Shown one piece after another: positions 6,601 to 42,706 of a stretch of DNA of 64,000 nucleotides (position 1 is its first letter; every line of letters starts with the position of its first letter). This DNA comes from Okamejei kenojei (taxonomy: Eukaryota). The DNA is taken from assembly GCA_035221665.1 (NCBI GenBank), contig JAVHYY010000483.1, positions 1-64,000 on the forward strand. Direction: 5' to 3'. Below the pieces are notes generated by a model. That model was given only the letters and a program-made list of their open reading frames with translations, did not search any database and had not been told where the DNA came from. Made by a program: the position numbers and the translations under genes.

Positions 6601-6631
6601 GTGTATGCTAGCAAAAGAAAAAGGTAGGTAT

Positions 6632-7279
6632 TGTGAGGGATAAAGTGGATTGAAACCCCTATTAAAGAAAGCGAGTTTTAAAGAGAATTCAAACAGAGAG
6701 GGCTGGAGAGGAGTAATTCTTACAGCAGTGTCTGAAAATTGCAGACCCCTCCATGAGGCCTTGAGTAAGAAGAGAATAGCTTTGTCTCGCTAGAGAAGGG
6801 GTGGATGTAAGAGAAATCCCTGTCAGTGGAAAGGAGTGATGGATGGGACCACCTAGTCACATAACATAGCTTTAGTGCTGATATAGGAAAACTGGAGGGT
6901 TCACTAGGAGGTGAGCAAAAGTTGGCCAGTCAGAGCAATTGGAGCATGCGGTTATAGAAAAAATGAATATTACAACACACCCCTGGTCCAAGTAATTTGC
7001 TTCATTACCATGAACATGCAATGTATGATTTGGGAGTGTCCCGAGGAGGATGTACGGTGGGTTGTGCCTACAATAGTGCACCTCCGACTCTGATTGGAAG
7101 CAGAGGTTCCGGAGAGAAATTAATGTAAGATTTTGTGTATAAAAGGGGCTGATCTCCCCTGGCTTCAGTGTGTCTCGAGTTGGAGAAGGCACCCGTCTCA
7201 GACTCGTAAAATAAAGAAATCTCTTGCTTCCAGGATTTAGTCTTTGAGTATTTATTGTGAGCATAAAGGGTATCTCACA
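6632..7279 (+). repeat. ERV 3' LTR
   Basis: Homologous to 448-1127; preceded by the PPT AAAAGAAAAAGGTAGG. Confidence 0.88.
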
Positions 7280-7281
7280 CA

Positions 7282-7682
7282 TGGATATCCCTCAAAGACT
7301 AAATTCTTGGACAGCAAGAAGTTCTGTAATTTCCTCAAGAGTCCTGCAGACCCGGGTGCCTCTCCAAGTCGAGACATCACTGAAGCCAAAGAAGTCATCC
7401 CCCTGTGAGATATGCTTATGCTCACAATTAATGCTCAAAGAATAAATCCTGGAAGCAAGAGTTCTTTATTCCTCACGCTACTGCAGACCCGGGTGCCTCC
7501 CAATCGAGACCACACCGAAGCCAGAGAGATCATCCCCCTTTATTACACAAGAATCTTACATTCAACATCCCCTCCGATAACCCTTCTCCAATCAGGGTCC
7601 GAGGTGCAACAATCTTTAAGGTACATATCCCCTCGCAACCTCCCAATCATACCATCCGCATGTTCAAACATGTCATTGGTAA
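7282..7682 (-). repeat. Two partial inverted copies of the LTR 3' (R/U5) end
   Basis: ~7282-7403 and 7404-7682 are reverse complements of the LTR end (TGTGAGAT...GCTCAAAG...CCTGGAAGCAAGA). Confidence 0.75.
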
Positions 7683-8358: not shown

Positions 8359-8428
8359 CTATTTTGCATTTCCCTGTTTCAGGCCTTCGATTTTCATAAT
8401 CCTATGAACAGGGATTTCAGCCACGTTC
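8359..8428 (-). CDS. WA: WA exon 5, cytoplasmic tail [23 protein letters not shown]
   Basis: Strong polypyrimidine tract plus TGCAG acceptor; phase 2 matches exon 4; stop TAG at 8361-8359. Confidence 0.65.
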
Positions 8429-11400: not shown

Positions 11401-14400
11401 GCCCATATTTCCCGCAAGCCCGGGCAGGTTCACCTGGCGGGACAGGCAGAGTTGAGCTGGGTTTAGCTTTGGCTGTGGGGCCTGGGGAGTACAGCTCGCG
11501 TCTGATTCCCGACCTCTCTGGCCACCCGTGGGAGGGGTGGGGACGGGACGCGGGACAGCGCCGGAGACCCGGCCGGGATCGATCCTGGCTGCGGATGAGG
11601 CGCAGGTCTGCGCCCCTCCAATCACCGCGCTAAATCGTCATGTCCCGCCCCCATTGCCTGCTGAGAGATGTCCCCCCATCTCTCAAAACATGGGGTGGGG
11701 GGGGACATATCCCCTCTGGCCCCTCCCCCCACGTTTCCCGCCCCTGATTTACAAACAAACCGAACCGCTTACCAAGCGAGAGGGTCAAGGCTTCATCAAG
11801 GCTGACGTGAGCTACAAGGCAGCTGAAGGTGTCCCCGCGTCGGGGCTCGATCCGGATGTACTTCAGGATGTTGAAGGTCCAGTCTGTCTCGACCAGCAGT
11901 GGGGACGAGTGGACGGGGCCGGAGAAACGCTGGCCGTTGACCAGGAATTGTAGCTCAATCTCAAAAGGGTAGAACCTCTCGGCATAACAGTACAGGGTGT
12001 TGGGTCTCTGTGGGACGTAGTCCTCTTCTGTGTAGATGTGGACGATCGGTTTCTCTGCAACAGAGGTGAGACTTTAACAAGAGGAATCGAATATAGGAGT
12101 CCTTCTGCAGTTGTACAGGGCCCTAGTGAGACCACAGCCGGAGTATTGTGTGAAGTTTTGGCCTGTTGGCCTTCATAACAAGAGGAGTTGAGTATAGGAG
12201 CAAAGAGGTCCTTCTGCAGTTGTACAGGGCCCTAGTGAGACCACACCTGGAGTATTGTGTGCAGTTTTGGCCTGTTGGCCTTCATAACAAGAGGAGTTGA
12301 GTATAGGAGCAGAGAGGTCCTTCTGCAGTTGTACAGGGCCCTGGTGAGACCACACCTGGAGTATTGTGTGCAGTTTTGGCCTGTTGGCCTTCATAACAAG
12401 AGGAGTTGAGTATAGGAGCAAAGAGGTCCTTCTGCAGTTGTACAGGGCCCTAGTGAGACCACACCTGGAGTATTGCGTGCAGTTTTGGTCCCCTAATTTG
12501 AGGAAGGACATTCTTGCTATTGAGGGAGCCCAGCGTAGGTTCACCAGGTTAATTCCCGGGATGGCGGGACTGTCATACGCTGAGAGAATGGAGCGGCTGG
12601 GCTTGTACACTCTGGAGTTTAGAAGGATGAGAGGGGATCTCATTGAAACATATAAGATTGTTAAGGGCTTGGACACGCTAGAGGCAGGAAACATGTTCCC
12701 GATGTTGGGGGAGTCCAGAACCAGGGGCCACACACACACAAGTTTAAGAATAAGGGGTCGGCCATTTAGAACGGAGACGAGGAAACACTTTTTCTCACAG
12801 AGAGTGGTGAGTCTGTGGAATTCTCTGCCTCAGAGAGCGGTGGAGGCCGGTTCTCTGGATGCTTTCAAGAGAGAGAATTAAATAGAACTCTTAGAGATAG
12901 CGGAGTCTGGGGGATATGAGGAGAAGGCAGGAACGGGATGCTGATTGCGGATTAACAAGTTTATCGGGAAGGCCGGCTCTATCCTGGGGGCGGAGTTGGA
13001 GCTGGAGTTGGATTTACGGGGAGTGGCCTCGGAGGGGAGGATGCTCCTCAAACTGCGGAGCATCCTGGAACAGTGCAGCTCACCCCCCTCCGTGACACGC
13101 TGGTCAACCTGAGGAGCACCTTCAGCAACAGACTGGTCCCCACCGAGATGCAGCGCAGAACGCCACAGGAGATCCACAGGAGATGCTGGAGCAACTCAGC
13201 GGGTGAGTCAGCATCTACGGAGCGAAGGAATGGGTGACGTTTGTCCTGGGGCCTCCTCCATTGTCAGAGTGAGGCCCAGCGTATATTGGAGGAGCAGCAC
13301 CTCATATTTCGCTTAAGTAGTTTGCACGAACATTGACTTCTCTAACTTCAGATAGCCCTTGCTCACCCTCTCTCTCCATCCCCTCCCTCTTCCCCGATCC
13401 CCCCCACTAGTCTTACCGTCCCGACTAAATTCTTTTCTGTGTCCCGTCCCTTCCCCTGACACCAGTCTGAAGGAGGGTCTCGACCCGAAACATCGCCCAT
13501 TCCTTCTCTCCATAGATGCTGCCTCGCCCGCTGAGTTACTCCAGCATTTTGTGTCTGTCTTCCCACCGTGGGGTAGACTGAGACTGACTCTCCAACCCCC
13601 CCCCCCCCTCCGGCCCATCCGGCCCTTCCAGCCAGCACCGCCATTCACTGTGATCACGGCTGATCATCCCCAATCAGTTCCCCGTTCCTGCCTTCTCCCC
13701 ATATCCCCTGACTCCGCTATCTTTAAGAGCCCTATCTAGCTCTCTCTTGAAAGTATCCAGAGAACCGGCCTCCACCGCCCTCTGAGGCAGAGAATTCCAC
13801 AGACTCACCACTCTCTGTGAGAAAAAGTGTTTCCTCGTCTCCGTTCTAAATGGCTTACTCCTTATTCTTAAACTGTGTGTGTGCCCCTGGTTCTGGACTC
13901 CCCCAACATCGGGAACATGTTTCCTGCCTCTAGCGTGTCCAAGCCCTTAACAATCTTATATGTTTCAATGAGATTCCCTCTCATCCTTCTAAACTCCAGA
14001 GTGTACAAGCCCGGCCGCTCCATTCTCTCAGCGTATGACAGTCCCGCCATCCCGGGAATTAACCTGGTGAACCTACGCTGGGCTCCCTCAATAGCAAGAA
14101 TGTCCTTCCTCAAATTAGGGGACCAAAACTGCACACAATACTCCAGGTGTGGTCTCACCAGGGCCCTGTACAACTGCAGAAGGACCTCTTTGCTCCTATA
14201 TTCGATTCCTCTTGTTATAAAGGCCAACATGCCATTGGCTTTCTTCACTGCCTGCTGTACCTGCATGCTTACTTTCATAGACTGATGTACAAGGACCCCC
14301 AGATCCCGTTGTACGTCCCCTTTTCCCAACGTGCCGTGTTGAGATTGATGCCGCCTCACCCGCCGAGCTTCTCCAGCACTTATTGACGACATTCCTTTGG

Positions 14401-17400
14401 TTTAGTTATGTTTCATTCGCAAGGAGAGGAAGGAGAAACATAGAAAATAGGTGCAGGAGGAGGCCATTCGGCCCTTCGAGCCACCACCGCCATTCATTGT
14501 GATCATGGCTGATCGTCCGCTATCAATAACCCGTGCCTGCCTTCTCCCCATATCCCTCGACTCCACCAGCCCCTAGAGCTCTATCCAACTCTCTCTTAAA
14601 TCCATCCAGTGATTTGGCCTCCACTGCCCTCTGTGGCAGGGAATTCCACAAATTCACAACTCTCTGGGTGAAAAAGTTTTTTCTCACCTCAGTCTTAAAT
14701 GTCCTCCCCTTTATTCTAAGACTGTGTGTGGCCCCTGGTCCTGGACTCGCCCAAGATTGGGGACGGAGAAGAGGCAGCCTCTGCTTCCCTCGCACGCCGA
14801 CTTACTGCCGCCGATGGGTTGGTCCTTGGCGCCGGCCGTCAGCTCGCTCAGGTCGCCCCGGAGCTGGGCCTGGAAGCCCTCGGCCCTCCGCGCAAAGTAG
14901 GCCACCTCCGCCTCGCCCAGCTCCGCCCTCCCGTCCGTGGCCTGGCCGTTCACGAAGAAGGCGCGCGCCTCGTGGTCGTAGGCGAGGAACGGCACGGCGT
15001 TCACGCTGAGGATGTCCAGAGTCTTCCCCGAGCCCGACGAGCCCCGGGCGTAGACAAAATGCTCAGACACCGTCTTGATCTCTGGTGGGGGCGGGAGAAC
15101 ATGGGAGAAGAGAGTCAACAGTGTTAGTCAAGTCAAAGGTGCTGGAGAAACTGAACGGGTGAGGCAGCAACTATGGAGCAAAGGAAATGCTGGTCCCCTA
15201 ATATGAGGGAGGACATTCTTGCTATTGAGGGAGCCCAGCGTAGGTTCACCAGGTTAATTCCCGGGATGGCGGGACTGTCATACGCTGAGAGAATGGAGCG
15301 GCTGGGCTTGTACACTCTGGAGTTTAGAAGGATGAGAGGATATCTCATTGAAACATATAAGATTGTTAAGGGTTTGGACACGCTAGAGGCAGGAAGCATA
15401 TTCCCGATGTTGGGGGAGTCCAGAACCAGGGGCCACAGTTTAAGAATAAGGAGTAAGCCATTTAGAAACATAGAAACATAGACAATAGGTGCGGGAGTAG
15501 GCCATTCGGCCCTTCGAGCCTGCACCGCCATTCAATATGATCATGGCTGATCATCCAACTCAGTATCCCGTACCTGCCTTCTCTCCATACCCCCTGATCC
15601 CTTTAGCCACAAGGACCACATCTAACTCCCTCTTAAATATAGCCAATGAACTGGCCTTAACTACCTTCTGTGGCAGAGAATTCCACAGATTCACCACTCT
15701 CTGTGTGAAAAATGTTTTTCTCATCTCGGTCCTCAAAGACTTTCCCCCTTATACTTAAACTGTGACCCCTTGTTCTGGACTTCCCCAACATCGGGAACAA
15801 TCTTCCTGCATCTAGCCTGTCCAACCCCTTAAGAATGTTGTACGTTTCTATAAGATCCCCCCTCAATCTTCTAAATTCTAGCGAGCACAAGCCGAGTCTA
15901 TCCAGTCTTTCTTCATATGGAAGTCCTGCCATCCCAGGAATCAGTCTGGTGAACCTTCTCTGCACTCCTTCGGAGATCTCGGAGAAAACCCGCGGGGGGA
16001 ACGTGCTAACTCCTCGCAGACCGCACGATCTTCCTGTCCAACAACTTAAGAAATTTGTTGGTCTCTATGAGATCCCCCCTCAATCTTAGGGGGGGGGGGA
16101 TCTCATAGAAGGGTGAAAGGTCAATAGAAGGATGTTCTTTAAAGAAGGAGATGAGGAGGAATTTCTGTAGAGAATCTCTGGAATTAATACATTAATTTTC
16201 ACACTGAATTAATGCACATTATTGCACTATTAATTAATAATAATAATATATGTTGTCGTTGCACAGAGGTAAAACGAGATTTGATATGCAGCTTCCATCC
16301 GATGTAATAACCTAATTAACTAAAAATTTAGACACACAGAGAAACAAGATTTTTAAAAAAACAGTATAAAGTGCAAATATATCTGTGCCGGGTTGTTGCG
16401 CGATGTGACCATCTCAGGGAGACAGTTCACGTGGGGGGCACTCGGCAGGGCCGGTTCAGAGCAGCTATAGCTCTTGGGGGTGAAGCTGTTCCCAAGTCTG
16501 GAGGTGCGGGCGTAGAAGGCCTTGTAACGTCTGCCGGAAGGTAGGAGTTCGAACAGACTATTGCAAGGGTGTGAGGAGTCTTTGCGAATGCTGACGGCCT
16601 TCCCGAGGCACCGTGTAGTGTAGATGACAGTGCGATAATAACAATAACAGTCTAAGTAATTCAGAGCTTGTCGATTCTAGTGTATAATAGCCTGATGGCT
16701 CTACAGAAGAAGCTGTTCCTGAACCTGGACCTTACGGTTTTCAAGTTCCTGCACCTCCAACGAAAGGTAGAAAGAGTACTTATTAAATGTGCATAAATGC
16801 TCAATAAACGTAAGACACACTTTAATACAATTTAAACTTTTACACAGATTATACTACTCAAAAACTAAATTAAATAAATTCTTCCCCAACTTGTGATCAA
16901 TGCCAGTTTCAGGAAGCTGCGAGAGCGCACTCATTCACCTTTTGTACCAAAATTCAAAGGTTTTGGATTGAAAACCTTTGAAGGTTCACAAAATTGTTAA
17001 AAAATAAAAATGACACCAAAGCCAGAATGGATTATTTTTGGAATGACAGAAGGTAGTCCGGAATTAAATGTGTATCAAAAGAATCTATTTGATTACGACT
17101 TAATAATAGGATAAAAAGCTAATCTTAAAATTCTGGGAAAATGCTCCCACAGCAACTTTAAATATGTGGATTTCAACTATGTTTGAAACACTACAATCTG
17201 GAAGATATGAGACTCTGCCTGGCAGAAAAATCAGATTGTTTCTATCAGACGTGGTCTGTATTCATAGAATTACTACAAAGATAGGCTGCAAAAATACCTC
17301 GGGTCTTGGTGTGGGGGGGGGGATGAAAAACTGATTCCTGGGATGGCAGGACTTCCATATGAAGAAAGACTGGATAGACTCGGCTTGTACTCGCTGGAAT

Positions 17401-20400: not shown

Positions 20401-20664
20401 AGGGTTTGGACACGCTAGAGGCAGCACCTCTACTCCTGCACCTTTTGTCTATTGCCTATACCATTAACCTGCTGAGGCAAAGTATGTCTGAAGAAGGGTC
20501 ACAACCCGAAACGTCACCCATTCTCTCCAGCGATGCAGCCTGTCCCCGCTGAGTTACGCCAGCATTTTGCGCCCTACCCTTTGGTGTAAAACCTCCTACT
20601 CACCAATCTCTGCCACGGCTGCAGCCAGAGACAGCAGGACCGTTAGCGAGCCTCGGGGACCCAT
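8359..20664 (-). CDS. WA: MHC W-category alpha chain (class II-like architecture, beta2m-like alpha2); join complement(20604-20664,14806-15081,11773-12054,10477-10588,8359-8428), 266 aa
   Basis: Five exons with GT-AG boundaries and matching phases (1,1,1,2); total 801 nt, open to TAG. Leader, groove domain, Ig-C1, CP/TM with CxxGxxxGxxG, and cytoplasmic tail. Confidence 0.88.
10477..10588 (-). CDS. WA: WA exon 4, connecting peptide + transmembrane ([37 protein letters not shown])
   Basis: TGCAG acceptor and GTAAGG donor; MHC class II alpha TM signature CxxGxxxGxxG. Confidence 0.88.
11773..12054 (-). CDS. WA: WA exon 3, alpha2 Ig-C1 domain, beta2-microglobulin-like
   Basis: 282-nt phase 1-1 exon, not present in this frame in the ORF track: [93 protein letters not shown]; contains C...FYP...CxVxH. 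Confidence 0.93.
12075..12950 (+). mobile_element. CR1-clade LINE (HER1-like) 3' fragment with 109-bp tandem duplications
   Basis: RT C-terminus [19 protein letters not shown]...WNSLP; unit starts at 12160, 12269 and 12378. Confidence 0.9.
13610..14330 (-). mobile_element. CR1-clade LINE 3' fragment
   Basis: ORF 13868-14392 ([12 protein letters not shown]...VRPHLEYC) plus the typical 3'UTR. Confidence 0.9.
14806..15081 (-). CDS. WA: WA exon 2, alpha1 groove domain ([14 protein letters not shown]...[14 protein letters not shown]...KDQPIGG)
   Basis: 276-nt phase 1-1 exon, CCAG acceptor and GTAAGT donor; [11 protein letters not shown] resembles class I alpha1 YVDDTQFVRFD; no Cys. Confidence 0.85.
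15190..15970. mobile_element. Two CR1 LINE fragments, tail to tail
   Basis: + fragment 15190-15470 and - fragment 15465-15970. Confidence 0.8.
16870..17290 (+). mobile_element. L1-clade LINE ORF2 3' remnant
   Basis: Degenerate Cys-rich C-terminus (FPTCDQC...H.F...KIQRFW); similar to 30500-31160. Confidence 0.55.
18280..20110 (+). mobile_element. L2-clade LINE 3' fragment interrupted by two CR1 insertions (~18430-18847 +, ~19252-19824 -)
   Basis: KNLGVIFDS...[10 protein letters not shown]...[12 protein letters not shown]...HITP.L.SLHWLPV; the L2 sequence resumes after each insertion. Confidence 0.85.
20604..20664 (-). CDS. WA: WA exon 1, signal peptide [20 protein letters not shown]
   Basis: ATG at 20664, hydrophobic core, phase-1 donor G|GTGAGT at 20604; lies in non-repeat sequence. 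Confidence 0.8.
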
Positions 20665-21980: not shown

Positions 21981-22053
21981 ATGAGAGTGACGCTCCTGGC
22001 CATTCTTCATGCATTTGTTTCAATCGCAGAAGCGCTTGCCAGCAACCAAAGTG
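21981..22053 (+). CDS. WB: WB exon 1, signal peptide [24 protein letters not shown]
   Basis: AAGATG start, hydrophobic leader, phase-1 donor G|GTAAGT. Confidence 0.82.
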
Positions 22054-28000: not shown

Positions 28001-31000
28001 GGCCCCCACTGCCCTCTGTGGCAAGGAATTCCACCAATTCACAACTCTCTGGGTGAAAAAGCGTTTTCTCACCTCAGTCTTAAATGACCTCCCCTTTATT
28101 CTAAGACTGTGTGTGGCCCCTGGACAGTCCCGAGCGAGGCCTCCAGCTCCGCGATGTTAGGCCGCAGAGCGACCGGAGTTACGGCCCCGAAAACAATCGC
28201 CTCTCCGGCAAGGGGAAAGATCGAAAACAAGATTCACCCGACCCCCCCACCACCCCCCACATAAAATAAACCAGAGAACATTAAAACAAACTTTTAAAAA
28301 CACACTAAAAAGAACAAAATAAAAAGGAAAAGACAGTCAGACTGTTGGCGAGGCAGCCATCGAAGCGCCACCTGGTGGTAATTAGGTGACATTTCAGGTC
28401 GCGAGGTCTATCTTCGGTTTAAACCTGCAGTTGCTTCCTACGTTTTAATTCCCCTTCCCATTCCCAACACTGACCTTTCTGTCCCGGGCCTCCTCCACTG
28501 TCAGAGTGAGGCCAAACGCAAATTGGCAACACGGCATCTCATATTTCGTGGTAGGAACATTGACTTCTCTAACTTTCGGCAGCCCTTGCTTTCCCTCTCT
28601 CCCCATCCCCTCCCCCTTTCCCTGTTCTCCCACCAGTCTTACTGTCTCCGACTACATTCCATCTCTGTCGCGCCCACTCCCCTGACATCAGTCTGAAGAT
28701 GCTGCCTGTCCCGCTGAGTTACTCCAGCATTTTGCGTCTACCTTTAGTTCCCGAGCTCCGTTTGTCAACTGTCCCGAGGTACGGTGAAAAGCTTCTGTGC
28801 CTGCTAATCAGCCAACCAACATAGAAAATAGGTGCAGGAGTAGGCCATTTGGCCCTTCGAGCCAGCACCGCCACTCAATGTGTTCATGGCTGATCGTCCC
28901 CAATCAGTACCCCGTTCCTGCCTTCTCCCCACATCCCCTGACTCCGCTATCTTTAAGAGCCCTATCTAGCTCTCTCTTGAAAACATCCAGAGAACCGGCC
29001 TCCACCGCCCTCTGAGGCAGAGAATTCCACACTCACCACTCTCTGTGAGGAAAAAGTGTTTCCTCGTCTCCATCCTAAATGGCAAACCCCCATTTCTTAA
29101 ACTGGGGCCCCTGGTTCTGCACTCCCTCAACATCGGGAACATGTTTCCTGCCTCTAGCATGTCCAAGCACCTGACAATCTTATATGTTTCAATGAGATGC
29201 CCTCTCATCCTTCTAAACTCCAGAGTGTACAAACTCAGCCGCTCCATTATCTCAGCGTATGACACTCCCGCCATCCCGGGAATTAACCTTGTAAACCTAC
29301 GCTGCACTCCCTCAATAGCAAAAATGTCCTTCCTCAAATTAGGAGACCAAAACTGCACACAATACTCCAGGTGTGGTCTCACCAGGGCCCTGTACAACTG
29401 CAGAAGGACCTCTTTGCTCCTATACTCAACTCCTCTTGTTATGAAGGCCAACAGCCCAAAACTGCACACAATACTCCAGGTGTGGTCTCACCGGGGCCCT
29501 GTACAACTGCAGAAGGACCTCTTTGCTCCTATACTCAACTCCTCTTGTTATGAAGGCCAACAGGCCAAAACTGCACACAATACTCCAGGTGTGGTATCAC
29601 CAGGGCTCTGTACATCTACAGAAGGACCTCTTTGCTCCTATATTCGATTCCTTTAGCTATAAAGGCCAACATGCCATTCGCTTTCTTCACTGCCTGCTGT
29701 ACCTGCATGCTTACTTCCATGGTCTGATGTACAAGGGCCTCCAGATCCCCTTTTCAAACTTGACGCCATTTAGATAGTAATCTGCCTTCCTGTTTTTGCT
29801 ACCAAAATGGATAACTTTTGGCTTTGTCGCAGGCCTGCATGTTATGCACCAGTTCTGCGGCTGCAGCCTGCGCGGTCAGCAGACGGCCGTGTCTTGGGTG
29901 GACGGCTACGACGGAGAGACCGTCCTGTACTACCAGCTGGCCAACAAGTCGTTCGTCGCCACCCAGCCTCGGGCCCAGTCGCTGGTGAACGGACGCAACG
30001 CCAACCTCCAGTTCGTGGAGTCTGTCCCTCAGCTGGTGTCCAACCTGTGCGACAGAATCAAACGCCTAGCTGCCCTCACCAACGTCACCCGGGAAAGGAG
30101 AGGTCAGTGTCCTAAGATCACCAAAGGTCATCGTTGTACGGAGCAGAATTAGGCCATTGGGCCTAAATCCTGCCTTCTCCCCATAGCCTCTGACACCCAT
30201 ACTTGTTAAATATATTTTTATTATAGAAACATATTTATGAAAATTACAATGTTTTACATAAACGAAAATACATCATTATATACTTTCATAATATTAATAA
30301 TATTGATATTGTTAGTAATATTAAAATTTAGGACTGTATGCTTCTATACGCTTTTTTAATTATTTTTTATAAAGTGGGAAAAGATAGAGATAAATAATGA
30401 AGAAAATATGAAAGCGAATGGAGTATTAATCATTAATCCGTCATTGGAGATATAGGCATGATTTATTATATATATTTCTTCATCCATTCTAATATTCAGG
30501 CCTCAGTCAAGCCCTCGTACCGAGCCGTTATGACTCTGTAAATATTCAATATATGGAGACCATATCCCTCTGAAGAGATCCAACCTGTCCATTAAGACAA
30601 GCCTCATCTCTCCAGATGAAGTGTCTCCGACATTTCTGTATTCCACATTTTGATTGTAGGGGATGTAGGGCCTTTCCAAAATTTTAATATTAATTTTTTC
30701 CCAATTATTAACCCATAAATCAATAAAATTTCATTTGATTTGTTGTTACTAATTGTTCTGTTTCCAGTATTCCTAGTATTATTAGCTTTGAATCGGGTAT
30801 CAAAGTTATATTAACAACATTCGAAATTATCCTAAATATTTCAATCCAAAATTTTGTAATTTTTTATACAGTTTGTAAATGAATGTGACAAATTGGCTTC
30901 TAAATGTTGACATTTATCACATATAGGAGATACTTTTGGGAACATATTATGTAATTTGGATTTTGAATAATATAGGCTATGTAATATTTTAAACTGTATA

Positions 31001-34000
31001 AGAGAGTGTTTAGCATTTAGCGAACAATGATGTATATGTTGTAAACTATCATCCCATACTTCTGGTCTGATAGTTTGGCATAATTCATTTTCCCAAGATT
31101 GTCTATGTATTTCTGTTGATGGAACATCACCTTCCAATAAGATGTTATATATGTATGAATATACAAAAGTCATCGTTGTACGGAGCAGAATTAGGCCATT
31201 GGGCCTATCAAGTCCACTCTGCCTTTCAAACATGGCTGATCTATCTCTCCCTCCTCAGTCTGAATAGACAATAGACAATAAACGACGGACAATAGGTGCA
31301 GGAGTAGGCCGTTCGGCCCTTCGAGCCAGCACGGCCATTCATTGTGATCATCCCCAATCAGTAACCCATTCCTGCCTTCTCCCCGTATCCCCTGACTCCG
31401 CTATCTTTAAGAGCCCTATCTAGCTCTCTCTTGAAACTATCCAGAGAAGTGGCCTCCACCGCCCTCTTGAGGCAGAGAATTCCACAGGGTCGCCACTGTG
31501 AGAAAAAGTGTTTCCTCGTCTCCCCAATCAGTACCCCCGTTCCTGCCTTCTCCCCATATCCCCTGACTCCGCTATCTTTAAGAGCCCTATCTAGCTCTCT
31601 CTTGAAACTATCCAGAGAACCGGCCTCCACATTCCACAGACTCACAACTCTCTGGGCGAAAAAGTGTTTCCTCGCCTCCGTTCGAAATGGCTGACCCCTT
31701 ATTCATAAACTGTGTGTGGCCCCTGGCTCTGGACTCCCCCAACATCTGGAACATGTTTCCTGCCTCTAGCGTGTCCAAACCCTTAACAATCTTATGTGTT
31801 TCTATGAGATCCCCTCTCATCCTTCTAAACTCCAGAGTGTACAAGAAGGGTCTCGACCCGAAACGTCACCTGTTTCCTTCGCTCCATAGATGCTGCCTCA
31901 CCCGCTGAGTTTCTCCAGCATTTTTGTCTATCTATCTCTCCCTCCGAACCCCATTCTTCCACATAACCCCCGACACCCGTACTAATCAAGAATCTATCTA
32001 ACTCTAGCCTTAAAAATATCCACTGACGGCCTCCATAGCCGTCCATGCACTGTTATCATAACTTCATCACTGATAGGATCAGAAATTAGGCCATTCGACC
32101 CATCGTGTCCACTCCGCCATTCAATCACGGCTGATCTATCTCTCCCTCCTAACCCCATTCTCCTGCCTTCTCCCCATAAACCTCTGACACCCGCACTGAT
32201 CAACAATCTATCTAACTCTGGAATTCTCTGCCTCAGAAGGCAGTGGAGGCCAATTCACTGGATGTTTGCAAGAGAGAGGGAGATTTAGCTCTTAGGGCTG
32301 ACGGAATCAAGGGATATGGGGAGAAAGCAGGAACGGGGTACTGATTGGGGATGATCAGCCGTGGATCAGATTGAATGGCGGTGCTGGCTCGAAGGGACGA
32401 ATGGCCTACTCCTGCACCTATTGTCTATGTTTCTACGTGTCTCTAATCCAGGCTGCTTTCAACCTGTGCCCCGCTCCCCAATTTGTTTGTGCAGCTCCCA
32501 CCTACACCAGGGCTTACACCCGGAGGAGGCTGGCACAAGGCTACCTGGTGTGCCAAGCGAGTGGGTTCTTCCCCCGCGAGGTCAACGTGAGCTGGGTCAG
32601 AGACGGAGAGGAGGTGGTGGAGAGGGGGCAGGAGACGGTCGACGTCGTCCCTCGTAGCGACGGGACCTTCCAGTTCCGGGGCGTGCGCCCGCTAAACGGC
32701 GATGGCGGGAAGTACGTCTGTCAAGTGGAACACGAGGCCATCAAGGGGAAGCTCTTCATACCTCTGGGTAAGAGATACATATACGTGAAAAGATCGCAGC
32801 GGGCCGTGAATCGACACAAAGTGCTGAAGGTAGACGCAAAAAAGCCTGGAGTTAAGGGCCCGTCACACTTGCATGCGATTGCGTGCGTTTGGCGCGACGA
32901 AACGGAAGCGGAGTTCACGGGAAGTTCCCGTTAAGTACGCGCTACCTACGCGCTAAGTTCGCGCTAAGTTCGCTCGTGACGTCATTTGCAACGTGCTTAC
33001 CAACCAGCTGGGCAGGAGGCGGGCCAACCGGGCGTCACACGGCGTCGGTGGGTGACGTCATCACGCAACGCCATGCCGGGCGGTGACATCATCGCGCAAC
33101 GCCACGCGTTAGGCGTAAGCCGTCAGGACGCTGCGTACGACGTCAGGACGCTGCGTACGCCCGCAATGCGCCTGCGTGCCGGCAGGCCGTTGGCGAGCGA
33201 AGATTCCGGCCACTGCCAGGATTTCGGTAGCCCCACGCGTTGTCGAGACCGGCCCCGCGACAACTCCGCGCTTCCAAGTGGGACCGGCCATACGGTGCCC
33301 GCGCGCCTCAAGCGACCACGAGGTAATTTGCGAGCCCAGCTCGCGTAAGTGGGACAGGCCCTTAACTCAATGGGACAGGCAGCATCTCAGGAGAGAAGGA
33401 ATGGGTGGCGTTTCAATAGACAATGGACAATAGGTGCAGGAGTCGGCCATTTGGCCCTTCGAGCCAGCACCGCCATACTGTAGGCGGTGATAGAAACATA
33501 GAAACATAGAAAATAAATGCAGGAGGAGGCCATTCAGCCCATCGAGCCAGCACCGCCATTCATTGTGATCATGGCTGATCGCCCCCCTATCAATAACCCG
33601 TGCCTGCCTTCTCCCCATATCCCTTGACTCCACTAGCCCCTAGAGTTCTATCTAACTCTCTCTTAAACCCATCCAGTGACTTGGCCTCCACTGCCCTCTG
33701 TGGCAGGGAATTCCACAAATTCACAACTCTCTGGGTGGAAATGTTTTTTCTCACCTCAGTCTTAAATGGCTTCCCCTTTATTCTAAGACTGTGTGGCCCC
33801 TGGTTCTGGACTCGCCCAACATTGGGAACCTTTTTCCTGCATCTAGCTTGTATAATCCTTTTATCCTTTTATAATTTCATATGTTTCTACAAGATCCCCC
33901 CTCATCCTTCTAAACTCCAGTGAATACAAGCCTAGTCTTTTCAATCTTTCCTCATATGACAGTCCCGCCATCCCAGGGATCAATCAGGTGAACCTACGCT

Positions 34001-37000
34001 GCACTGCCTCAATCACAAGGATGTCCTTCCTCAAATTAGGAGACCAAAACTGTACACAGATGTGGTCTCACCAGAGCCCTATACAACTGGAGAAGAACCT
34101 CTTTACTCCAGTACTGAAATCCTCTAGTTATGAAGGCCAACGTGCCATTAGCTTTCTTGCTGTACCTGCACGCCAACTTTCAGTGACCGGTGTACAAGGA
34201 CGCCCAGGTCTCGCTGCACCTCCCCCTTACCTAACCTGGAGCGATATAGAACAAATGAATGAAAGATATGCAAAAAAGTAAGGATGAGAAAGGAAACGGG
34301 CCATTGTTAGCCGATCGCTAGGTGTGAACGAGAAACTGGTGCGACTTGGGTGGGGGAGGGATCTCACTGAATGGCCTAGTCCTGCACCTATTGTCCATTA
34401 CCTCCCAACTCCAATACTCTGACTGAAGAAGGCCAAAGTGCCAGATGTCTCTGACCAACCTATCCAAATTGTGGGCCGAATTGAAGGGTGTATTTCCCTT
34501 GCTGTATCTCAAAACTCTAAAAGAATAGATACCCGGACTTCACAAAGTGTCTTCTCTGCAGAACGCAACCTGGCAGTGTCGAATGAAGCTTTGATCGTCG
34601 TTGGAAGTGTGGTGGGATTACTAGGAATCTCTGCAGCGGTGGTCACCATGGTGATTCATTGCTGGCTCTCATATGGTAAGTTAAGTCTACTATCTAAATG
34701 GCGTCAAGTTGGGAAAAACGGAAGTACAACGGGATCTGGGGGTCCTTGTACATCAGTCTATGAAAGTAAGCATGCAGGTACAGCAGGCAGTGAAGAAAAC
34801 AATTGCCATGTTGGCCTTTATAACAGGAGGAATCAAATATAGGAGCAAAGAGGTCCTGCAGTTGTACAGGGCGCTTGTGAGACCATACCTGGAGTATTGT
34901 GTGAGACCACATCTGGAGTATTGTGTGCAGCTTTGGCCTGTTGGCCTTCACAACAAGAGGAGTTGAGTATTGGAGCAAAGAGGCCCTTCTGCAGTTGTAC
35001 AGGGCCCTGGTGAGACCACACCTGGAGTATTGTGTGCAGTTTTGGCCTGTTGGCCTTCACAACAAGAGGAGTTGAGTATTGGAGCAAAGAGGCCCTCCTG
35101 CAGTTATACAGGGCCCTGGTGAGACCACACCTGGAGTATTGTGTGCAGTTTTGGCCTGTTGGCCTTCATAACAAGAGGAGTTGAGTATTGGAGCAAAGAG
35201 GCCCTTCTGCAGTTGTACGGGGCCCTGGTGAGACCACACCTGGAGTATTGTGTGCAGTTTTGGTCCCCTAATTTGAGGAAGGACATTCTTGCTATTGAGG
35301 GAGCCCAGCGTAGGTTCACCAGGTTAATTCCCGGGATGGCGGGACTGTCATATGCTGAGAGAATGGAGCGGCTGGGCTTGTACACTCTGGAGTATAGAAG
35401 GATGAGAGGGAATCTCATTGAAACATATAAGATTGTTAAGGGCTTGGACACGCTAGAGGCAGGAAACATGTGCCCGGCGTTGAGGGAGTCCAGAACCAGG
35501 GGCCACACACAGTTTAAGAATAAGGAGAAAGTCATTTAGAACGCAGATGAGGAAAAACCTTTTCTCACAGAGAGTGGTGAGTGTGGAATTCTCTTATTCT
35601 CATTCCTATTCTTATTGTTAAACTGTGGCCCCTGGTTCTGGACTCCCCCAACATTGAGAACATGTTTCCTGCCTCTAGCGTGTCCAAACCATTAATAATC
35701 TTTTATGTTTCATAAGATCCCCTCCCATCCTTTTAAATTCCAGAGTGTACAAGTCCAGCCGCTCCATTCTCTCAGCGTATGACAGTCCCGCCATCCCGGG
35801 AATTAACCTGGTGAACCTACGCTGCGCTGCCTCAATAGCAAGAATGTCCTTCCTCAAATTAGCTGACCAAAACTGCACACACTACTCCAGGTGTAGTCTC
35901 ACCAGGGCCCTGTACAACTGCAGAAGGGCCTCTTTGCTCCTATACTAAACTCCTCTTGTTATGAAGGCCAACAGGCCAAAACTGCACAATACTCCAGGTG
36001 AGGTCAATACTCCAGGTGAGGTCTCACAACTGCAGAAGGGCCTCTTTGCTCCTATACTCAACTCCTCTTGTTATGAAGGCCAACAGGCCAAAACTGCACA
36101 CAATACTCCAGGTGTGGTCTCACCAGGGCCCTGTACAACTGCAGAAGGGCCTCTTTGCTCCTATACTCAACTCCTCTTGTTATGAAGGCCAACAGGCCAA
36201 AACTGCACACAATACTCCAGGTGTGGTCTCACCAGGGCCCTGTACAACTGCAGAAGGGCCTCTTTGCTCCTATACTCAACTCCTCTTGTTATGAAGGCCA
36301 ACAGGCCATTGGCTTTCTTCACCGCCTGCTGTACCCGCATGCTTACTTGATGTGGAGTGAATTTATAGAGGTGTATAAGACCATGAGGGGAACAGACCGG
36401 GTAGACGCACAGTTCTTTTACCCAGAGTAGGGGAATTAAGATCTAGACGTCATACTGTAGGTTTAATGTGAGGGGGGAAAGATTTAATAGGAACTTGAGG
36501 AGCTTGTTTCAATATTGATGCGAAACATGTCATCTCTCCATTCCTTTGCACAGGTGGAAAGAAGTCAGACCTTACTCCAACAGGTGAGCGAAAAGTCTCA
36601 ATAGCTTTTGTATAATGTAGACATAAGCATAATGTACCACCCCCTCTCCCATCAGGCAAGAGGTACAGAAACATAGACAATAGGTGCAGGAGGAGGTCAT
36701 TCGGCCCTTCGAGCCAGCACCACCATTCATTGTGATCATGGCTGATCGTCCCCTATCAATAACCCGTGCCTGCCTTCTCCCCATATCCCTTGACTCCACT
36801 AGCCCCTGGAGCTCTATCTAACTCTCTCTTAAATCCATCCAGTGACTTGGCCTCCACTGCCCTCTGTGGCAGGGAATTCCACAAATTCACAACTCTCTGG
36901 GTGGAAAAGTTTTTTTCTCACCTCAGTCTTAAATGGCCTCCCCTTTATTCTAAGACTGTGTGGCCCCTGGTTCTGGACTCGCCCAACATCGGGAACATTT

Positions 37001-40000
37001 TTCCTGCATCTAGCTTGTCCAGTTCTTTTATAATTTTATATGTTTCTATAAGATCCCCCCTCTTCCTTCTAAACTCCAGTGAATACAAGCCTAGTCTTTT
37101 CAATCTTCCCTCATATGACAGTCCCGCCATCCCAGGGATCAATCTGGTGAACCTACGCTGCACTGCCTCAATCACAAGGATGTTCTTCCTCAAATTAGGG
37201 GACCTAAACTGTACGCAATACTCCAGATGTGGTCTCACCAGGGCCCAATACAACTGCAGAAGAACCTCTTTACTCCTGTACTGAAATCCTCTTGTTATGA
37301 AGGCCAACGTTCCATTCGCTTTCTTCACTGCCTGCTGTACCTGCACGCCAACTGGTGTACAAGGACACCCAGGTCTCGCTGTGCCTCCCCCTTACCTAAC
37401 CTAACCCCATTGAGATAATAATCTGCCCCCTTGTTTTTGCCACCAAAGTGGATAACCTCTCATTTATCTATATTATACTGCATCTGCCACGCATCTGCCC
37501 ACTCACTCAACCTGTCCAGGTCCCCCTGCAACCTCCTAACATCCTCTTCACCGTGACAGCAATAAATTAAATGCAATACAATGTGACTTTGCTCTTTCCA
37601 CAGTCGGCTTCAACAAGGAGACTGGGTTATGCCGAACCTACACTTGCAGTGGGAGTCTGCACTCCAACACTTCCAACAGTTCAAATTCCAGCGGAGATTC
37701 AGGTACTACGAGACGCAGGAATACAATTAGGTATGGGTGACGTTTCGGGTCGAGACCCTTCTTCAGACCCGAAACGTCGCCTATTTCCTTCGCTCCATAG
37801 ATGCTGCCCCACCCGCTGAGTTTCTCCGGGATATTTTTGTCTGGAGCGGCTGGGCTTGTACACTCTGGTGTTTCGAAGGATGCGAGGGGATCTTATTGAA
37901 ACATATAAGCTTATGAAGGGATTTGGACACGCCAGAGGCAGGAAACATGTCCCCGATGTTGGGGGAGTCCAGAACCAGGGGCCGCACACACACAGTTTAA
38001 GAACAAGGGGTCGGCCATTTAGAACGGAGGTGAGGAAATAGTCACTCTAATTGATGACCGAGTCAGAAGGTGATCTGTAAGAAAGAACTGCAGATGCTGG
38101 AAAAATCGAAGGCAGAGAAAAGTGCTGGAGTAACTCAGCGGGTGAGGCAGCATCCATGGAGCGAAGGAATCGGCGACGTTTCAGGACGACACCCTTCATC
38201 CCCCACTCCCCCCCCCCCCACTCTCACATCAGTCTCAAGAAGAGTCTCGACCCGAAACGTCGCCTATTTCCTTTGCTCCACAAAGAATTCCACGGACTCG
38301 CAACTCTCTGTGAGAAAAAGTGTTTCCTCGTCCCCATTCTAAATGGCCGACCCCTTATTCTTAAACTGTGTGTGTGTGTGGCCCCTGGTTCTGGACTCCC
38401 CTTCTTCTTCTTTCGTGTGGCGTTGCACAGCCTAAAGTTGTCGGACAACTTGTTCTATTTGATCTTCCGTTTGTGCACTGTGTGTCGAGTCGATTGCATT
38501 CGTCGAAACAGGGCGGGCCACGTGAAGGTCGCAGTCTTCCACCCCTGGACTCCCCCAACATCGGGAACATGTTTCCTGCCTCTGGCGCGTCCGAACCCTT
38601 AACAATCTTATATGTTTCAATGAGATCTCCTCTCATCCTTCTAAACTCCAGAGTGGACAAGCCCAGCCGCTCCATTCTCTCAGCGTATGACAGTCCCGCC
38701 ATCCCGGGAATTAACCTGGTGAACCTACGCTGCACTCCCTCAATAGCAAGAATGTCCTTCCTCAAATTAGGGGACCAAAACTGCACACAATACTCCAGGT
38801 GTGGTCTCACCAGGGCCCTGTACAACTGCAGAAGGACCTCTTTACTCCTATACTCAACTTTTCTTGTTATGAAGGCCAACAGCCCAAAACTGCACACAAT
38901 ACTCCAGGTGTGGTCTCACCGGGGCCCTGTACAACTGCAGAAGGGCCTCTTTGCTCCTGTGCTCATCTCCTCTTGAGTCAACATGCCATTCGCTTCCTTC
39001 ACTGCCTTGCACTAAACATTATTCCCTTAACATGTATCTGTACGCTGTAAACAGCTCGATTGTGATCGTGTATAGTCTTTCCGCTGACTGGTTAGCACGT
39101 AACAAAAGCTTCTAACTGTACCTCGGTAAAAACTACAGGCCCACTGCGACATCTACAGAGACAGTCTCCGTATCTAGAATCAGGAATTGAAAGGGGCAAG
39201 GCAGTCCTTTTCCTGAGAGGTTATTAACAAAGATAATAATTCCCGCACCTTATTTGCCGCTGTCGATAGACTGACAAACCCCTCGTCATCAGTCCCTCCT
39301 GAGCTCCCGTCCAGCGAGTCGTGCAATGACTTTGCAGATTTCTTCGCTGGTACAATTCTGAAGATAAGACAAACCATGTGTAGCTCCACCTCAGGGAACG
39401 TGGCCTTGTCACTTATGCACTCCAGATTCACTAACGAATCGACCACATTTTGAACTTTTAGACTGTGCATCTCTGACTGAAACTGTTCAGCAGCTAAAGT
39501 CCGCTACCTGCTGCCTTGATCTGCTGCCCACAAGCTTCTTTAAAAATATTTTTAACAGTGTTGCACCAGAAGTGCTGAACATAGCAAACACTTCCCTTCA
39601 ATTGGGGCATTTTCCCAAAGCCTTAAAAACTGCAGCGATCAAACCCCGATTGAAGAAGCCTAATCTGGATGCCTCAAAGCAGCTACAGGCCCATATCTAA
39701 TTTAGCATTTCTAGCAAAGATCATTGAACGGGTAGTTTACCAACAAATTTACTGCTTTATGATCCAAAACAATATTTTTAATGTTTTCCAGCCGGGATTT
39801 TGGCCACATCACAGCACTGAGACTACACTTACTAAGGTCCTAAACGACCTACATCTAAACAGTTTTAAAGAAGGAACTGCAGATGCTGGAGAATCGAGGG
39901 TTACACAAAAAGCTGGAGAAACTCAGCGGGTGCAGCAGCATCTAAGGAGCGAAGGAGATAGGCGACGTTTCGGGTCGAGACCCTTCTTCAGACTGTGTTC

Positions 40001-42706
40001 CCTTTATCACCGATACTTTTTTGCATATCTTTCACTCATTGTTCCTTATCTCTCCACATCACCGTCTATATCTCTCGTTTCCCTGATCCCTGACCAGTCT
40101 GAAGAAGGGTCTCGACCCGAAACGTCGCCTATCTCCTTCGCTCCTTAGATGCTGCTGCACCCGCTGAGTTTCTCCAGCTCTTTGTGTCCCCTACATCTAA
40201 ACAGTGATGCATCAAAAGCTTCAGTTTTGGTACTTCTAGACCTCAGTGCTGCTTTTGATACGGTGGACCATAACACACTGCTTGACCGACTGGAGAAGTG
40301 GGTAGGGCTCTCTGGTTCTGTGCTGGACTTGGTTCAAATCCTACTTGAAAGGTCGGGATTATTTTGTTTCCCCTGGCGATTATGAATCAGAACGTACAAA
40401 ACTCACATGCGGGGTTCCTCAGGGCTCCATGCTTGGACCCATTTTGTTCAATATTTACATGCTCCCCCCTAGCTCAGATCATAGAGTATTTTAACACATC
40501 CTGCCAGACTTATGCCGGTGACACACAACTTTATATCGCAGTGTTACCACACGACCATAGTCCCCTACACTCACTGAGTCAGTGTGTCAAACAATTGCAA
40601 TGAGTGGATGAACCAGAACCTCCTCCAGCTCAATGCAAATAAGACAGAAATTACTGTCTTTGGTCCCAAAAATACAAGGCTAGAGGTGAGTGCTCAACTT
40701 GACTCAATCGCACTGAAAACTACAGACCTTGGTGTAGTTATGGACTCGGATTTGAATTTTAACAGCCATATAAACACCATTACCAAATCTGCCTATTACC
40801 ATCTAAAAAACATTGCAAGAATCAAGGGATTTCTGTCCAAAGAAGATACTGAAAAACTTGCTCATGCATATATCTTCAGTCGGTTAGATTACTGTAATGG
40901 GATCTTTACGGGTCTCAGTAAAAAATCAATGAAACAACTGCAGCTTGTCCAGAATGCCACTGACCAACACCAAGAAAATGGACCACATTGCACCTGTCCT
41001 TAAATCTTTGCACTGGCTCCCTGTGCGAACAAGGATAGACTGTAAAATTCTGTTACTGGCCTACAAGGCACTGAATGGTCTGGGTCCAAAATACATCTCT
41101 GACCTTCTTGTTGTGTATGAGGCACCTAGACTCCTCGGGTCCTCAGGGACAGGTTTACTCTGCGTTCCCAGGGTCAGAACTAAAAAGGCTGAGGCAGCGT
41201 TGAGTTTTTATGCTCCAACACATGTGGAACACGCTCCCTGAACACCTGAGGTGTGTGCAGACTGTAAGCTCATTTAAATCAGGCCTAAAAACACTGTTGT
41301 TTACTGTAGCTTTTCCATAACCCAACATGCAGGTAATCTTAACCTTCAAATCTTATCCCTTTTATGTGCTTTTAAAATTGTTTTATTGTTTTAGTGACTT
41401 TGTTTTACTATTCATGCATTTGTCTTATAGCTTGTTTTGTAATTTTTGATTATTGGCCTGTGTTGTGTGGCTGTTCTGCTGCCTTTTTATTATGTTATTC
41501 TTTTGTTTCTTTTGTAAAGCACTATGAATTGCTGCATGTAGGAATGGTGCTAGATAAATAAATTTGCCTTGCCTTGCCTAGGAGTGAACGGGTCCTTTTC
41601 AGAATGGCAGGCAGTGGCGAGTGGAGTGCCGCAAGGCTCGGTGTTGGGGCCGCAACTGTTTACCATATATATATATATATATTAATGATTTGGAAGAGGG
41701 AATTAGGAGCAACACTAGCAAGTTTGCAGATGACACAAAGCTGGGTGGCAGTGTGAACTGCGAAGAGGATGTTAGGAGGTTGCAGGGGGACCTGGACAGG
41801 TTGAGTGAGCGGGCAGATGCGTGGCAGATGCAGTATAATATAGATAATGTGAGGTTATCCACTGGCAGCAAAAACAAGGGGGAAGATTATTATCTCGATG
41901 GGGTTAGGTTAGGTAAGGGGGAGGTACAGCGAGACCTTGTACACCAGTCACTGAAAGTTGGCGTGCAGGTACAGCAGGCAGTGAAGAAAGCTAATTGGCC
42001 TTCATAACAAGAGGATTTCAGTACAGGAGTAAAGAGGTTCTTCTGCAGTTGTATAGGACTCTGGTGAGACCACATCTGGAGTATTGTGTACAGTTTGGGT
42101 CTCCTAATTTGAGGAAGGACATCCTTGTGATTGAGGCAGTGCAGCGTAGGTTCACGAGATTGATCCCTGGGATGGCGGGACTGTCATATGAGGAAAGATT
42201 GAAAAGATTAGGCTTGTATTCATTGGAGTTTAGTAGGATGAGGGGGGATCTTATAGAAACATAAAATTATAAAAGGACTGGACAAGCTAGATGCAGGAAA
42301 AATGTTCCCAATGTTGGGTGAGTCCAGAACCAGGGGCCACAGTCTTAGAATAAAGGGGAGGTCATTTAAAACTGAGGTGAGAAAAAACCTTTTTACCCAG
42401 AGAGTTGTGAATTTATGGAATTCCCTGCCACAGAGGGCAGTGGAGGCCAAGTCACTGGATGGATTTAAGAGAGAGTTAGATAGAGCTCTAGGGGCTAGTG
42501 GAGTCGAGGGATATGGGGAGAAGGCAGGCACGGGTTATTGATTGGGGACGATCAGCCATGATCACAATGAATGGCGGTGCTGGCTCGAAGGGCCGAATGG
42601 CCTCCTCCTGCACCTATTGTCTATGTTTCTGTGACAATAAACTAAACTGAACTTGCTCTTTATGTTTTCTTTTACAGCTGATGGATTGACTAAATCTTCG
42701 GCGTAA
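21981..42706 (+). CDS. WB: MHC W-category beta chain (class I alpha2/alpha3-like domains in a class II beta architecture); join(21981-22053,29833-30102,32495-32767,34562-34675,37604-37702,42678-42706), 285 aa
   Basis: Six exons, all introns phase 1 and GT-AG; total 858 nt, open to TAA. Confidence 0.88.
22098..22300 (+). mobile_element. tRNA-derived SINE (HE1/V-SINE type) in WB intron 1
   Basis: A/B-box-like head (GGTTCGATCC) followed by the V-domain-like GGAGTTTGCACG...GTGGGTT.TCTCCGGGTGC.CCGGTTTCCTCCCA. Confidence 0.75.
22300..22945 (-). mobile_element. CR1-clade LINE 3' fragment
   Basis: ORF 22411-22911; (CTATGTTT)n tail. Confidence 0.9.
24350..25505 (+). mobile_element. CR1-clade LINE (HER1-like), longest RT fragment in the window
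   Basis: 284-aa ORF with SGVPQG.VLGP.LF.IYIN and FADDTKL; 3'UTR and microsatellite tail. Confidence 0.95.
26200..26565 (-). mobile_element. Rex1/Babar-type LINE 3' fragment
   Basis: [12 protein letters not shown]...[18 protein letters not shown]...SHPGH.LF..LPSG. Confidence 0.8.
28820..29815 (-). mobile_element. CR1-clade LINE fragment with 109-bp duplications, ending ~17 nt before the WB beta1 exon
   Basis: ORF 28966-29469 and repeated units. Confidence 0.88.
29833..30102 (+). CDS. WB: WB exon 2, beta1 groove domain ([11 protein letters not shown]...DGYDGE...NLCDRIKRL...)
   Basis: 270-nt phase 1-1 exon; G.H......GC, YDG and a helical Cys, as in class I alpha2 and class II beta1; N-glycosylation sequons NKS and NVT. 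Confidence 0.92.
30500..31160 (-). mobile_element. L1-clade LINE ORF2 3' remnant
   Basis: SWENEL...[14 protein letters not shown]...SPICDKC....ANLSHSF..C. Confidence 0.75.
32495..32767 (+). CDS. WB: WB exon 3, beta2 Ig-C1 domain ([21 protein letters not shown]...[10 protein letters not shown]...YVCQVEH)
   Basis: 273-nt phase 1-1 exon; canonical C1-set motifs; class I alpha3-like P..DGTFQ. Confidence 0.93.
32856..33361. mobile_element. MITE with terminal inverted repeats (PIF/Harbinger-like)
   Basis: TTAA-GGGCCCGTCACACTT...AAGTGGGACAGGCCC-TTAA; inserted into a Penelope-derived repeat. Related ends occur at ~48372 and 57364-58047. Confidence 0.7.
34562..34675 (+). CDS. WB: WB exon 4, CP/TM ([38 protein letters not shown])
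   Basis: 114-nt phase 1-1 exon; hydrophobic helix with GxxxGxxG; GTAAGT donor. Confidence 0.87.
34685..36350. mobile_element. Tail-to-tail CR1 LINE pair, each with 109-bp tandem arrays
   Basis: + copy 34685-35590 and - copy 35615-36350. Confidence 0.85.
36667..37550 (-). mobile_element. CR1-clade LINE 3' fragment
   Basis: ORF 36945-37346 plus 3'UTR. Confidence 0.9.
37604..37702 (+). CDS. WB: WB exon 5, cytoplasmic ([33 protein letters not shown])
   Basis: CTTTCCACAG acceptor; 99-nt phase 1-1 open exon in a unique island between LINEs; Ser-rich like MHC class I tails. Confidence 0.7.
39120..41580 (+). mobile_element. L2-clade LINE RT fragment (interrupted at 39864-40189)
   Basis: [57 protein letters not shown]; (TTGCC)n tail. 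Confidence 0.9.
39864..40189. mobile_element. Penelope-derived fold-back insertion flanked by a 16-bp direct duplication
   Basis: CCTACATCTAAACAGT at 39848-39863 and 40190-40205; internal ~85-bp inverted repeats. Confidence 0.75.
41580..42630 (+). mobile_element. CR1-clade LINE RT 3' fragment
   Basis: [11 protein letters not shown]...VRPHLEYC...WNSLP and 3'UTR. Confidence 0.9.
42678..42706 (+). CDS. WB: WB exon 6, cytoplasmic end ADGLTKSSA*
   Basis: TTTTCTTTTACAG acceptor, phase 1, TAA followed directly by a G|GTACG donor (suggests a separate 3'UTR exon). Confidence 0.6.

Follow-up and report, generated by a model that had tools for sequence, protein, structure and literature searches.

Anatomy of a head-to-head pair of W-category-type MHC genes in the skate Okamejei kenojei

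An immunoglobulin (Ig) exon of Okamejei kenojei has the place of a beta2 domain of an MHC class II beta chain, and at its interface positions it carries residues of a class I alpha3 domain. Does this exon belong to a class I gene, to a class II gene or to something else, and with which chain would its product pair? It lies in a stretch of 64,000 nucleotides (positions 1 to 64,000 of contig JAVHYY010000483.1, assembly GCA_035221665.1; hereafter the window). An earlier note, made from the letters of the window, had proposed that the gene of this exon and an alpha-chain gene encode partners held together by a class I-like interface.

Two complete genes on opposite strands

The exon was 273 bp long, flanked by an AG acceptor and a GT donor, in phase 1 at both ends, and encoded an Ig C1-set domain (32495-32767, plus strand; Pfam C1-set, E 1.5e-13). 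The decapeptide quoted in the earlier note was in frame at 32644-32673, with the codon of Pro57 at 32650-32652 and that of Gly61 at 32662-32664; the domain thus had the class I alpha3-type Pro and Gly and lacked the class II beta Trp, as had been claimed. Its last residue, Leu, was encoded at 32764-32766. A second C1-set exon (12054-11773, minus strand; Pfam C1-set, E 1.6e-16) encoded Tyr8 at 12034, Phe37 at 11947-11945, Leu55 at 11899 and Trp61 at 11881-11879. This Trp61, in a DWTF motif, was the Trp that had been assigned, correctly, to the alpha chain.

To find the remaining exons, ray and shark relatives were used as tblastn queries; the splice sites were taken from the sequence itself. 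As listed in Table 1, the beta2 exon was the third of seven coding exons of a plus-strand gene (WB, 21981-42706, 295 aa), and the second C1 exon was the third of five coding exons of a minus-strand gene (WA, 20664-8359, 266 aa). All ten introns of the two genes (10/10) were GT-AG, and neither frame contained an internal stop. Both chains began with a leader, followed by a single membrane-distal domain and a single C1 domain, and closed with a transmembrane helix and a tail. The distal domains of both chains (alpha1 and beta1) were unrecognised by Pfam; the beta1 family profile aligned to class I alpha2, and the WB beta1 exon had a single genomic match in its own assembly. WA and WB were arranged head to head, their start codons facing away from each other across 1316 bp. 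In a simple motif scan of this spacer, run with no control for chance, four CCAAT boxes were detected, whereas ISRE, X1 and kB gave no match.

Table 1. Coding exons of WA and WB and the spacer between them (window coordinates).
Feature	Position	Strand	Evidence or marks
WA exon 1, leader	20604..20664	-	tblastn, splice sites and frame, spliced contig
WA exon 2, alpha1 membrane-distal domain	14806..15081	-	tblastn, frame, contig; no Cys, Ile at position 30
WA exon 3, alpha2 C1-set domain	11773..12054	-	Tyr8, Phe37, Leu55, Val57, Trp61; last residue Leu
WA exon 4, connecting peptide and transmembrane helix	10477..10588	-	Cys and 3/4 class II alpha glycines
WA exon 5, cytoplasmic tail and stop	8359..8428	-	tblastn, frame, contig
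Spacer between the divergent WA and WB start codons	20665..21980	.	1316 bp; putative shared promoter region
WB exon 1, leader	21981..22053	+	tblastn with skate orthologue P0001; GT donor, frame
WB exon 2, beta1 membrane-distal domain	29833..30102	+	His6, Cys10, Cys12, Gly32, Gly35, Thr37 (numbering of Okamura et al.)
WB exon 3, beta2 Ig C1-set domain	32495..32767	+	Pfam, frame; joined to beta1 in a contig
WB exon 4, connecting peptide and transmembrane helix with GxxxG	34562..34675	+	tblastn, frame
WB exon 5, short cytoplasmic exon (predicted)	36554..36583	+	weak tblastn match, AG/GT and phase
WB exon 6, Ser/Asn-rich cytoplasmic exon	37604..37702	+	lies as one block in a public contig
WB exon 7, final coding exon, with stop	42678..42706	+	9/10 residues as at the end of P0001

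Spliced forms were present among public contigs. A 934-nt contig (run X9) joined all five WA exons at the modelled boundaries, an 814-nt contig (run X6) joined four of them, and a 339-nt contig (run X6) joined WB beta1 to beta2, the only WB junction seen joined. X6 and X9 represent one sample and the four runs one study; their type as RNA runs was guessed, and no holder of the beta2 exon was on record as RNA. The contigs differed from the window by a few percent, and among the exonic differences checked 4/9 in WB and 7/11 in WA changed a residue. Tyr8, Phe37, Leu55, Trp61, Pro57 and Gly61 were untouched among the differences listed.

The gene models bear directly on the reading that the exon belongs to an MHC class I-type gene. 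Such an origin would suit the best MHC matches in the PDB, which were class I alpha3 and beta2-microglobulin (beta2m), and the NCBI name of the closest skate protein ('class I ... -like'). However, a class I heavy chain has three ectodomains and a soluble beta2m partner, whereas each chain here had two ectodomains and a transmembrane exon. Only one membrane-distal exon was found upstream of beta2, full-length orthologues also had two ectodomains, and the alpha gene had a distal domain, a transmembrane helix and a tail of its own; separate beta2m-like and class I-like alpha3 exons were found on another contig (C30). The class I origin, to which we assign practically no probability, is refuted by the contig in which five alpha exons are spliced together and by the order leader, beta1, beta2 in the beta gene.

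Further features of WB were recorded. Compared with three batoid orthologues, beta2 was one residue longer after the C-strand, at a GAG-rich run (32602-32625). The beta tail (37604-37702 and 42678-42706) was rich in Ser and Asn, contained two Cys and closed with a short motif that its ray and shark orthologues have conserved, possibly a signalling or sorting element. The beta1 domain contained a Cys-x-Cys (29856-29864), and both of these Cys and the helix Cys were invariant in 8/8 orthologues. The first Cys would be unpaired, at the equivalent of class I position 99, which we take to be groove-facing; it was also present in a nurse shark class I row.

Placement in the W category

W-category MHC molecules were described by Okamura et al. 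(2021, PNAS; PMC8713811, excerpts of text and datasets) as chains that combine the shape of class II with the interface residues of class I, and were proposed as a link between class II and class I. According to these excerpts, the marks of alpha2 are Trp61 (the namesake), Leu55, Phe/Tyr57, Tyr8 and loss of Trp37, those of beta2 are Pro57 and absence of Trp61 (mostly Gly), and shark WA/WB pairs lie head to head. The skate pair had the class II-type architecture (in each chain a leader, a single distal domain and a single C1 domain, then connecting peptide, transmembrane and cytoplasmic parts), Trp61, Leu55, Tyr8 and Phe37 (Phe/Leu replacing Trp) in alpha2, Pro57 and Gly61 in beta2, and the head-to-head arrangement. 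Leu55 is shared by 6/8 of the published rows of the DS5-like subgroup. At position 57 of alpha2 Val was found; the published DS5-like rows have 7 Val, 1 Ile and in 0/8 cases Phe or Tyr, so this mark is non-discriminating for the subgroup. Class II-type transmembrane glycines (motifs as given in the available part of PMC13399432) were present in both chains, in beta as GxxxG and in alpha as Cys with 3/4 Gly, the last Gly being replaced by Thr as in the bullhead DS5-like row.

Could the two genes be a divergent, non-classical pair of conventional class II (DM-like or teleost-type) which independently acquired residues like those of class I? The class II domain layout and the transmembrane glycines would fit, most relatives are named 'class II-like' in databases, and Pro57 occurs in 8/30 of the class II beta rows listed in Dataset S2 of PMC8713811 (32 in the file), all 8 non-classical (0/13 classical rows). 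However, Trp61 is kept in 30/30 of these rows, where the skate beta2 had Gly, and the listed class II alpha rows keep Trp37 and lack Trp61, both of which were reversed here (Phe37, Trp61). Moreover, both domains fell into supported clades with proteins matching published W rows. This origin is largely refuted already, and we regard it as extremely improbable.

The decapeptide alone was not specific. Pro and Gly were found together in 6/32 hand-picked C1 domains of the same genome (five class I-like, one Ig-constant-like), and Gly61 is not fixed in the Nds5L subgroup of WB, position 61 in the four published rows being Lys, Arg, Ser or Gly. Because Pro with Gly, and Pro57 by itself, occur elsewhere and position 61 varies, the decapeptide is not diagnostic by itself; the signal lies in the combination of the alpha-chain pattern with a beta chain that has the class II shape and lacks the Trp.

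The closest relatives of both chains were from skates. WA alpha2 was 90% identical to P0005 (Leucoraja), whose domain reads as the published row 'little skate WA DS5 like', and 68% identical to P0009, which reads as 'houndshark WA DS5 n1'; WB beta2 was 81% identical to an Amblyraja protein, and the domain of a further relative, P0129, reads as 'cloudy catshark WB Nds5L 159K' (P0005, P0009 and P0129 were matched to the published rows by eye). A maximum-likelihood tree was built from 37 C1 domains. Besides the 2 of the window it comprised 18 homologues and 17 own-genome domains out of the 32 above, the last labelled from motifs and not from database names; no conventional class II beta row was available for it. 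The beta2 domain was placed in a 10-row clade (99/96) with P0129 and a bullhead-shark protein close to a published Nds5L row, and alpha2 in a 10-row clade (96/89) with P0005 and P0009. WA rows and a beta2m-like row were grouped at 97/73, below the tool's mark, in a tree with one IIA-like row only. Tyr8 and Trp61 were kept in 10/10 aligned alpha2 rows and Pro57 in 8/8 aligned beta2 orthologues. The constancy of Pro57, with the absence of the Trp61 that all the listed class II beta rows have, speaks against a chance pattern. In PDB searches alpha2 matched best to beta2m stretches, and the top 60 matches of the beta-family profile included no class II chain, consisting of Ig and of chains of class I type. 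A search of 1.8 billion proteins returned mostly multi-Ig proteins and added two members of the subgroup.

The membrane-distal residues were those of the subgroup. Ile30 was found in alpha1 and Gly32, Gly35 and Thr37 in beta1, against a W consensus of Val30, Ala32, Gly35 and Asp37. The little skate DS5-like row also has Ile30, and the three Nds5L beta1 rows returned have Ala, Gly and Ala at position 32, with Gly35, His6 and Thr37 (excerpts of PMC8713811). His6 and Thr37 were present in 7/7 aligned beta1 sequences; a further member, P0129, departs at both. Judged from these alignments, the distal residues appear to fit the subgroup, and the category consensus only in part.

That both C1 domains end in Leu, as the earlier note had it, was confirmed for WA alpha2 and WB beta2. 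As a peculiarity of this locus the terminal Leu was rejected, being common to the published subgroup rows and to shark and skate beta2m: the last residue is Leu or Met in 8/8 DS5-like rows, Leu or Phe in 4/4 Nds5L rows, and Leu in the nurse shark and little skate beta2m rows. It is Trp in the remaining rows seen, 10 from shark/skate WA and 10 from WB.

The skate pair thus resembled the published WA DS5-like and WB Nds5L chains in class II layout, head-to-head order, Ser-rich beta tail, the alpha2 set Tyr8/Phe37/Leu55/Trp61, a beta2 with Pro57 and without Trp61, and the subgroup residues Val57, His6, Thr37 and a last residue other than Trp. It differed from the published material in its source: Datasets S1-S3 of PMC8713811, in the rows available, include a little-skate WA DS5-like row but no WB Nds5L row from a skate or ray. 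In elasmobranchs, multi-copy WA and WB genes have been reported outside the MHC (Verissimo et al. 2023, MBE; PMC10751288, in part), the sawfish having three WA and three WB on a chromosome of 3,864,382 bp. Sawfish orthologues of both skate chains (P0003, P0006 and P0017) were found on a sequence of 3,864,382 bp, the same size as this W-gene chromosome. In the skate assembly the three W loci found were on separate small contigs (66.7, 32.8 and 123.6 kb).

The exon is therefore, very probably, the beta2 exon of an intact WB gene (Nds5L) lying head to head with an intact WA gene (DS5-like), whose products are likely to form a non-classical alpha/beta heterodimer at the cell surface.

Surroundings and other MHC loci in the assembly

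The contig bearing the pair was 66.7 kb long and yielded no further C1 exon; sequence repeated within the window amounted to 44% of its length. A decayed stretch at about 2700-7300 of the window, with many stops in all frames, is presumably retrovirus-like, with a motif resembling a protease near 3050 and a segment resembling an envelope near 6100.

Elsewhere, a second W beta gene of DS1-like type was found on contig C1003 (L007, G000:C1003:16496-16711, minus strand). It had Ala57, as against Pro57 in 8/8 of the published DS1 rows seen, little skate included; the difference could be allelic, could have arisen in the lineage or could be an error of the assembly. No partner C1 exon was detected in the scanned stretch of C1003. 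A WA alpha2 exon of DS10-like type, with Tyr8, Leu37, Phe57 and Trp61, was located on contig C1028 (L012, G000:C1028:76134-76391, plus strand). This contig measures 123.6 kb, and no C1 exon of a partner was seen in its first 120 kb.

Exons resembling those of class I, IIA and beta2m were found on contig C30. One class I-like alpha3 exon there (L055, G000:C30:4656887-4657051) lost its frame after a DGTY motif, compared with the near-identical L002 and L005. A class II alpha-like exon lay near 1.32 Mb (G000:C30). A scan of the surrounding 200 kb, about 100 kb to each side, found this exon alone and no C1 exon of class II beta. When a motif pattern for a conventional class II beta gene was run over the assembly, neither of its two matches scored as a C1 domain, and Pfam MHC_II_beta had no match anywhere in the assembly. 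These negative results may be due to an assembly gap or to limited search sensitivity.

Interface, pairing and role

Like class I (HLA-A2), the pair had Pro57 and Gly61 in the alpha3 equivalent, Gly35, and, in the beta2m equivalent, Tyr8, Leu55 and Trp61 with loss of Trp37. Unlike HLA-A2, it would consist of two membrane-anchored chains of two domains each, and the class I-type residues Phe57, Gln6, Ala32 and Asp37 were not kept. In alpha2 Phe/Tyr57 was replaced by Val, and in beta1 Gln6 by His, Ala32 by Gly and Asp37 by Thr, with Gly35 retained. Because four class I-type residues named by Okamura et al. were replaced, the class I-like interface is degenerate in the DS5-like/Nds5L subgroup. 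From conventional class II alpha/beta pairs, which it resembled in domain and exon organisation, paired genes and the Cys/Gly motifs of the transmembrane helices, it differed in lacking beta2 Trp61 and alpha2 Trp37 and in having alpha2 Trp61.

The earlier note had also supposed that the alpha-chain Trp and the beta-chain Gly face each other reciprocally across alpha2 and beta2. This did not hold. In class I the Trp of beta2m packs under the alpha2 sheet (here beta1) and the Gly of alpha3 faces the platform, so that the two residues belong to two different interfaces, and only Tyr8-Pro57 links the Ig domains (PMC8713811, excerpts). Of the class I-like pairing proposed for the two genes, a class II-shaped pair with class I-like interface residues stands, and the reciprocal Trp/Gly contact falls.

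By analogy with class I and class II structures and with the salamander WA/WB chains, for which co-dependent surface expression was demonstrated experimentally (PMC8713811, excerpts), the following assembly may be envisaged. WA and WB, sharing a short spacer, would be co-expressed, and the chains would probably co-assemble through the class II-type transmembrane glycines and a common alpha1/beta1 sheet. The alpha2 domain would probably take the place of beta2m: its Trp61 would lie beneath the sheet of beta1, and its Tyr8 would form a hydrogen bond with Pro57 of beta2, a domain that lacks the class II Trp anchor. A complex prediction for the isolated alpha2 and beta2 domains, run without alignments, scored 0.01 and carries no weight for or against the pairing. 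A single-chain model of orthologue P0001 had the expected secondary structure (pLDDT 61, pTM 0.36), and its Foldseek matches were a mixture of class I and class II, at an rmsd above 8 A, so that the model does not tell the two classes apart. No structure of a close relative was found in the PDB searches, and a search by title and abstract start, with most subscription journals outside its range, found no structure or mutagenesis paper on W molecules.

The receiving beta1 residues being changed, the chains might still be W chains and yet lack a class I-like interface, or pair with other W chains of the genome. Val57, His6, Gly32 and Thr37 in place of class I-type residues and the lack of a close relative in the PDB searches are in keeping with this, and cross-pairing is possible because the genome holds another WA (DS10-like, on C1028) and another WB (DS1-like, on C1003). 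However, Tyr8 and Trp61 in 10/10 alpha2 rows, Pro57 in 8/8 beta2 rows, the tight head-to-head linkage and a terminal Trp missing from both partners, among the shark W rows seen only in these subgroups, argue that the two chains belong together. We consider another interface or another partner highly improbable, and retain the DS5-like/Nds5L heterodimer.

The function of W molecules is not known, according to the available part of Kaufman's commentary (PMC8812513), and W subgroups are reported to have neither complete peptide-anchor sets nor high polymorphism (PMC8713811, excerpts). Since, in addition, alpha1 had Glu at the class I Tyr7 position, a non-classical role is the best guess, and WA/WB is most likely a non-classical display molecule or a receptor ligand rather than a classical peptide presenter. 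A bolder view, which we hold to be rather doubtful, is that DS5-like/Nds5L forms a structurally distinct W subfamily, kept by sharks and rays alike, whose two chains changed together and which displays a dedicated non-peptide ligand. The Trp61 pocket would have been remodelled (Val57, His6, Thr37), the two Ig domains would each have lost their terminal Trp, and beta1 would carry, beside its disulfide Cys, a further invariant Cys on the would-be groove floor.

The residue pattern that drew attention to this exon is the published hallmark of the W category, in print since 2021, and was rediscovered by the earlier note rather than newly found. The only gain is a complete gene model of a skate WA DS5-like/WB Nds5L pair; databases mislabel the beta chain of the subgroup as class I or class II, and this locus adds a correctly annotated pair. 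It leaves the published picture unchanged and provides useful material for work on structure or ligands; if DS5-like/Nds5L were indeed a distinct subfamily, the intact, spliced skate pair would be a ready test case for the first structure of a W-category molecule.
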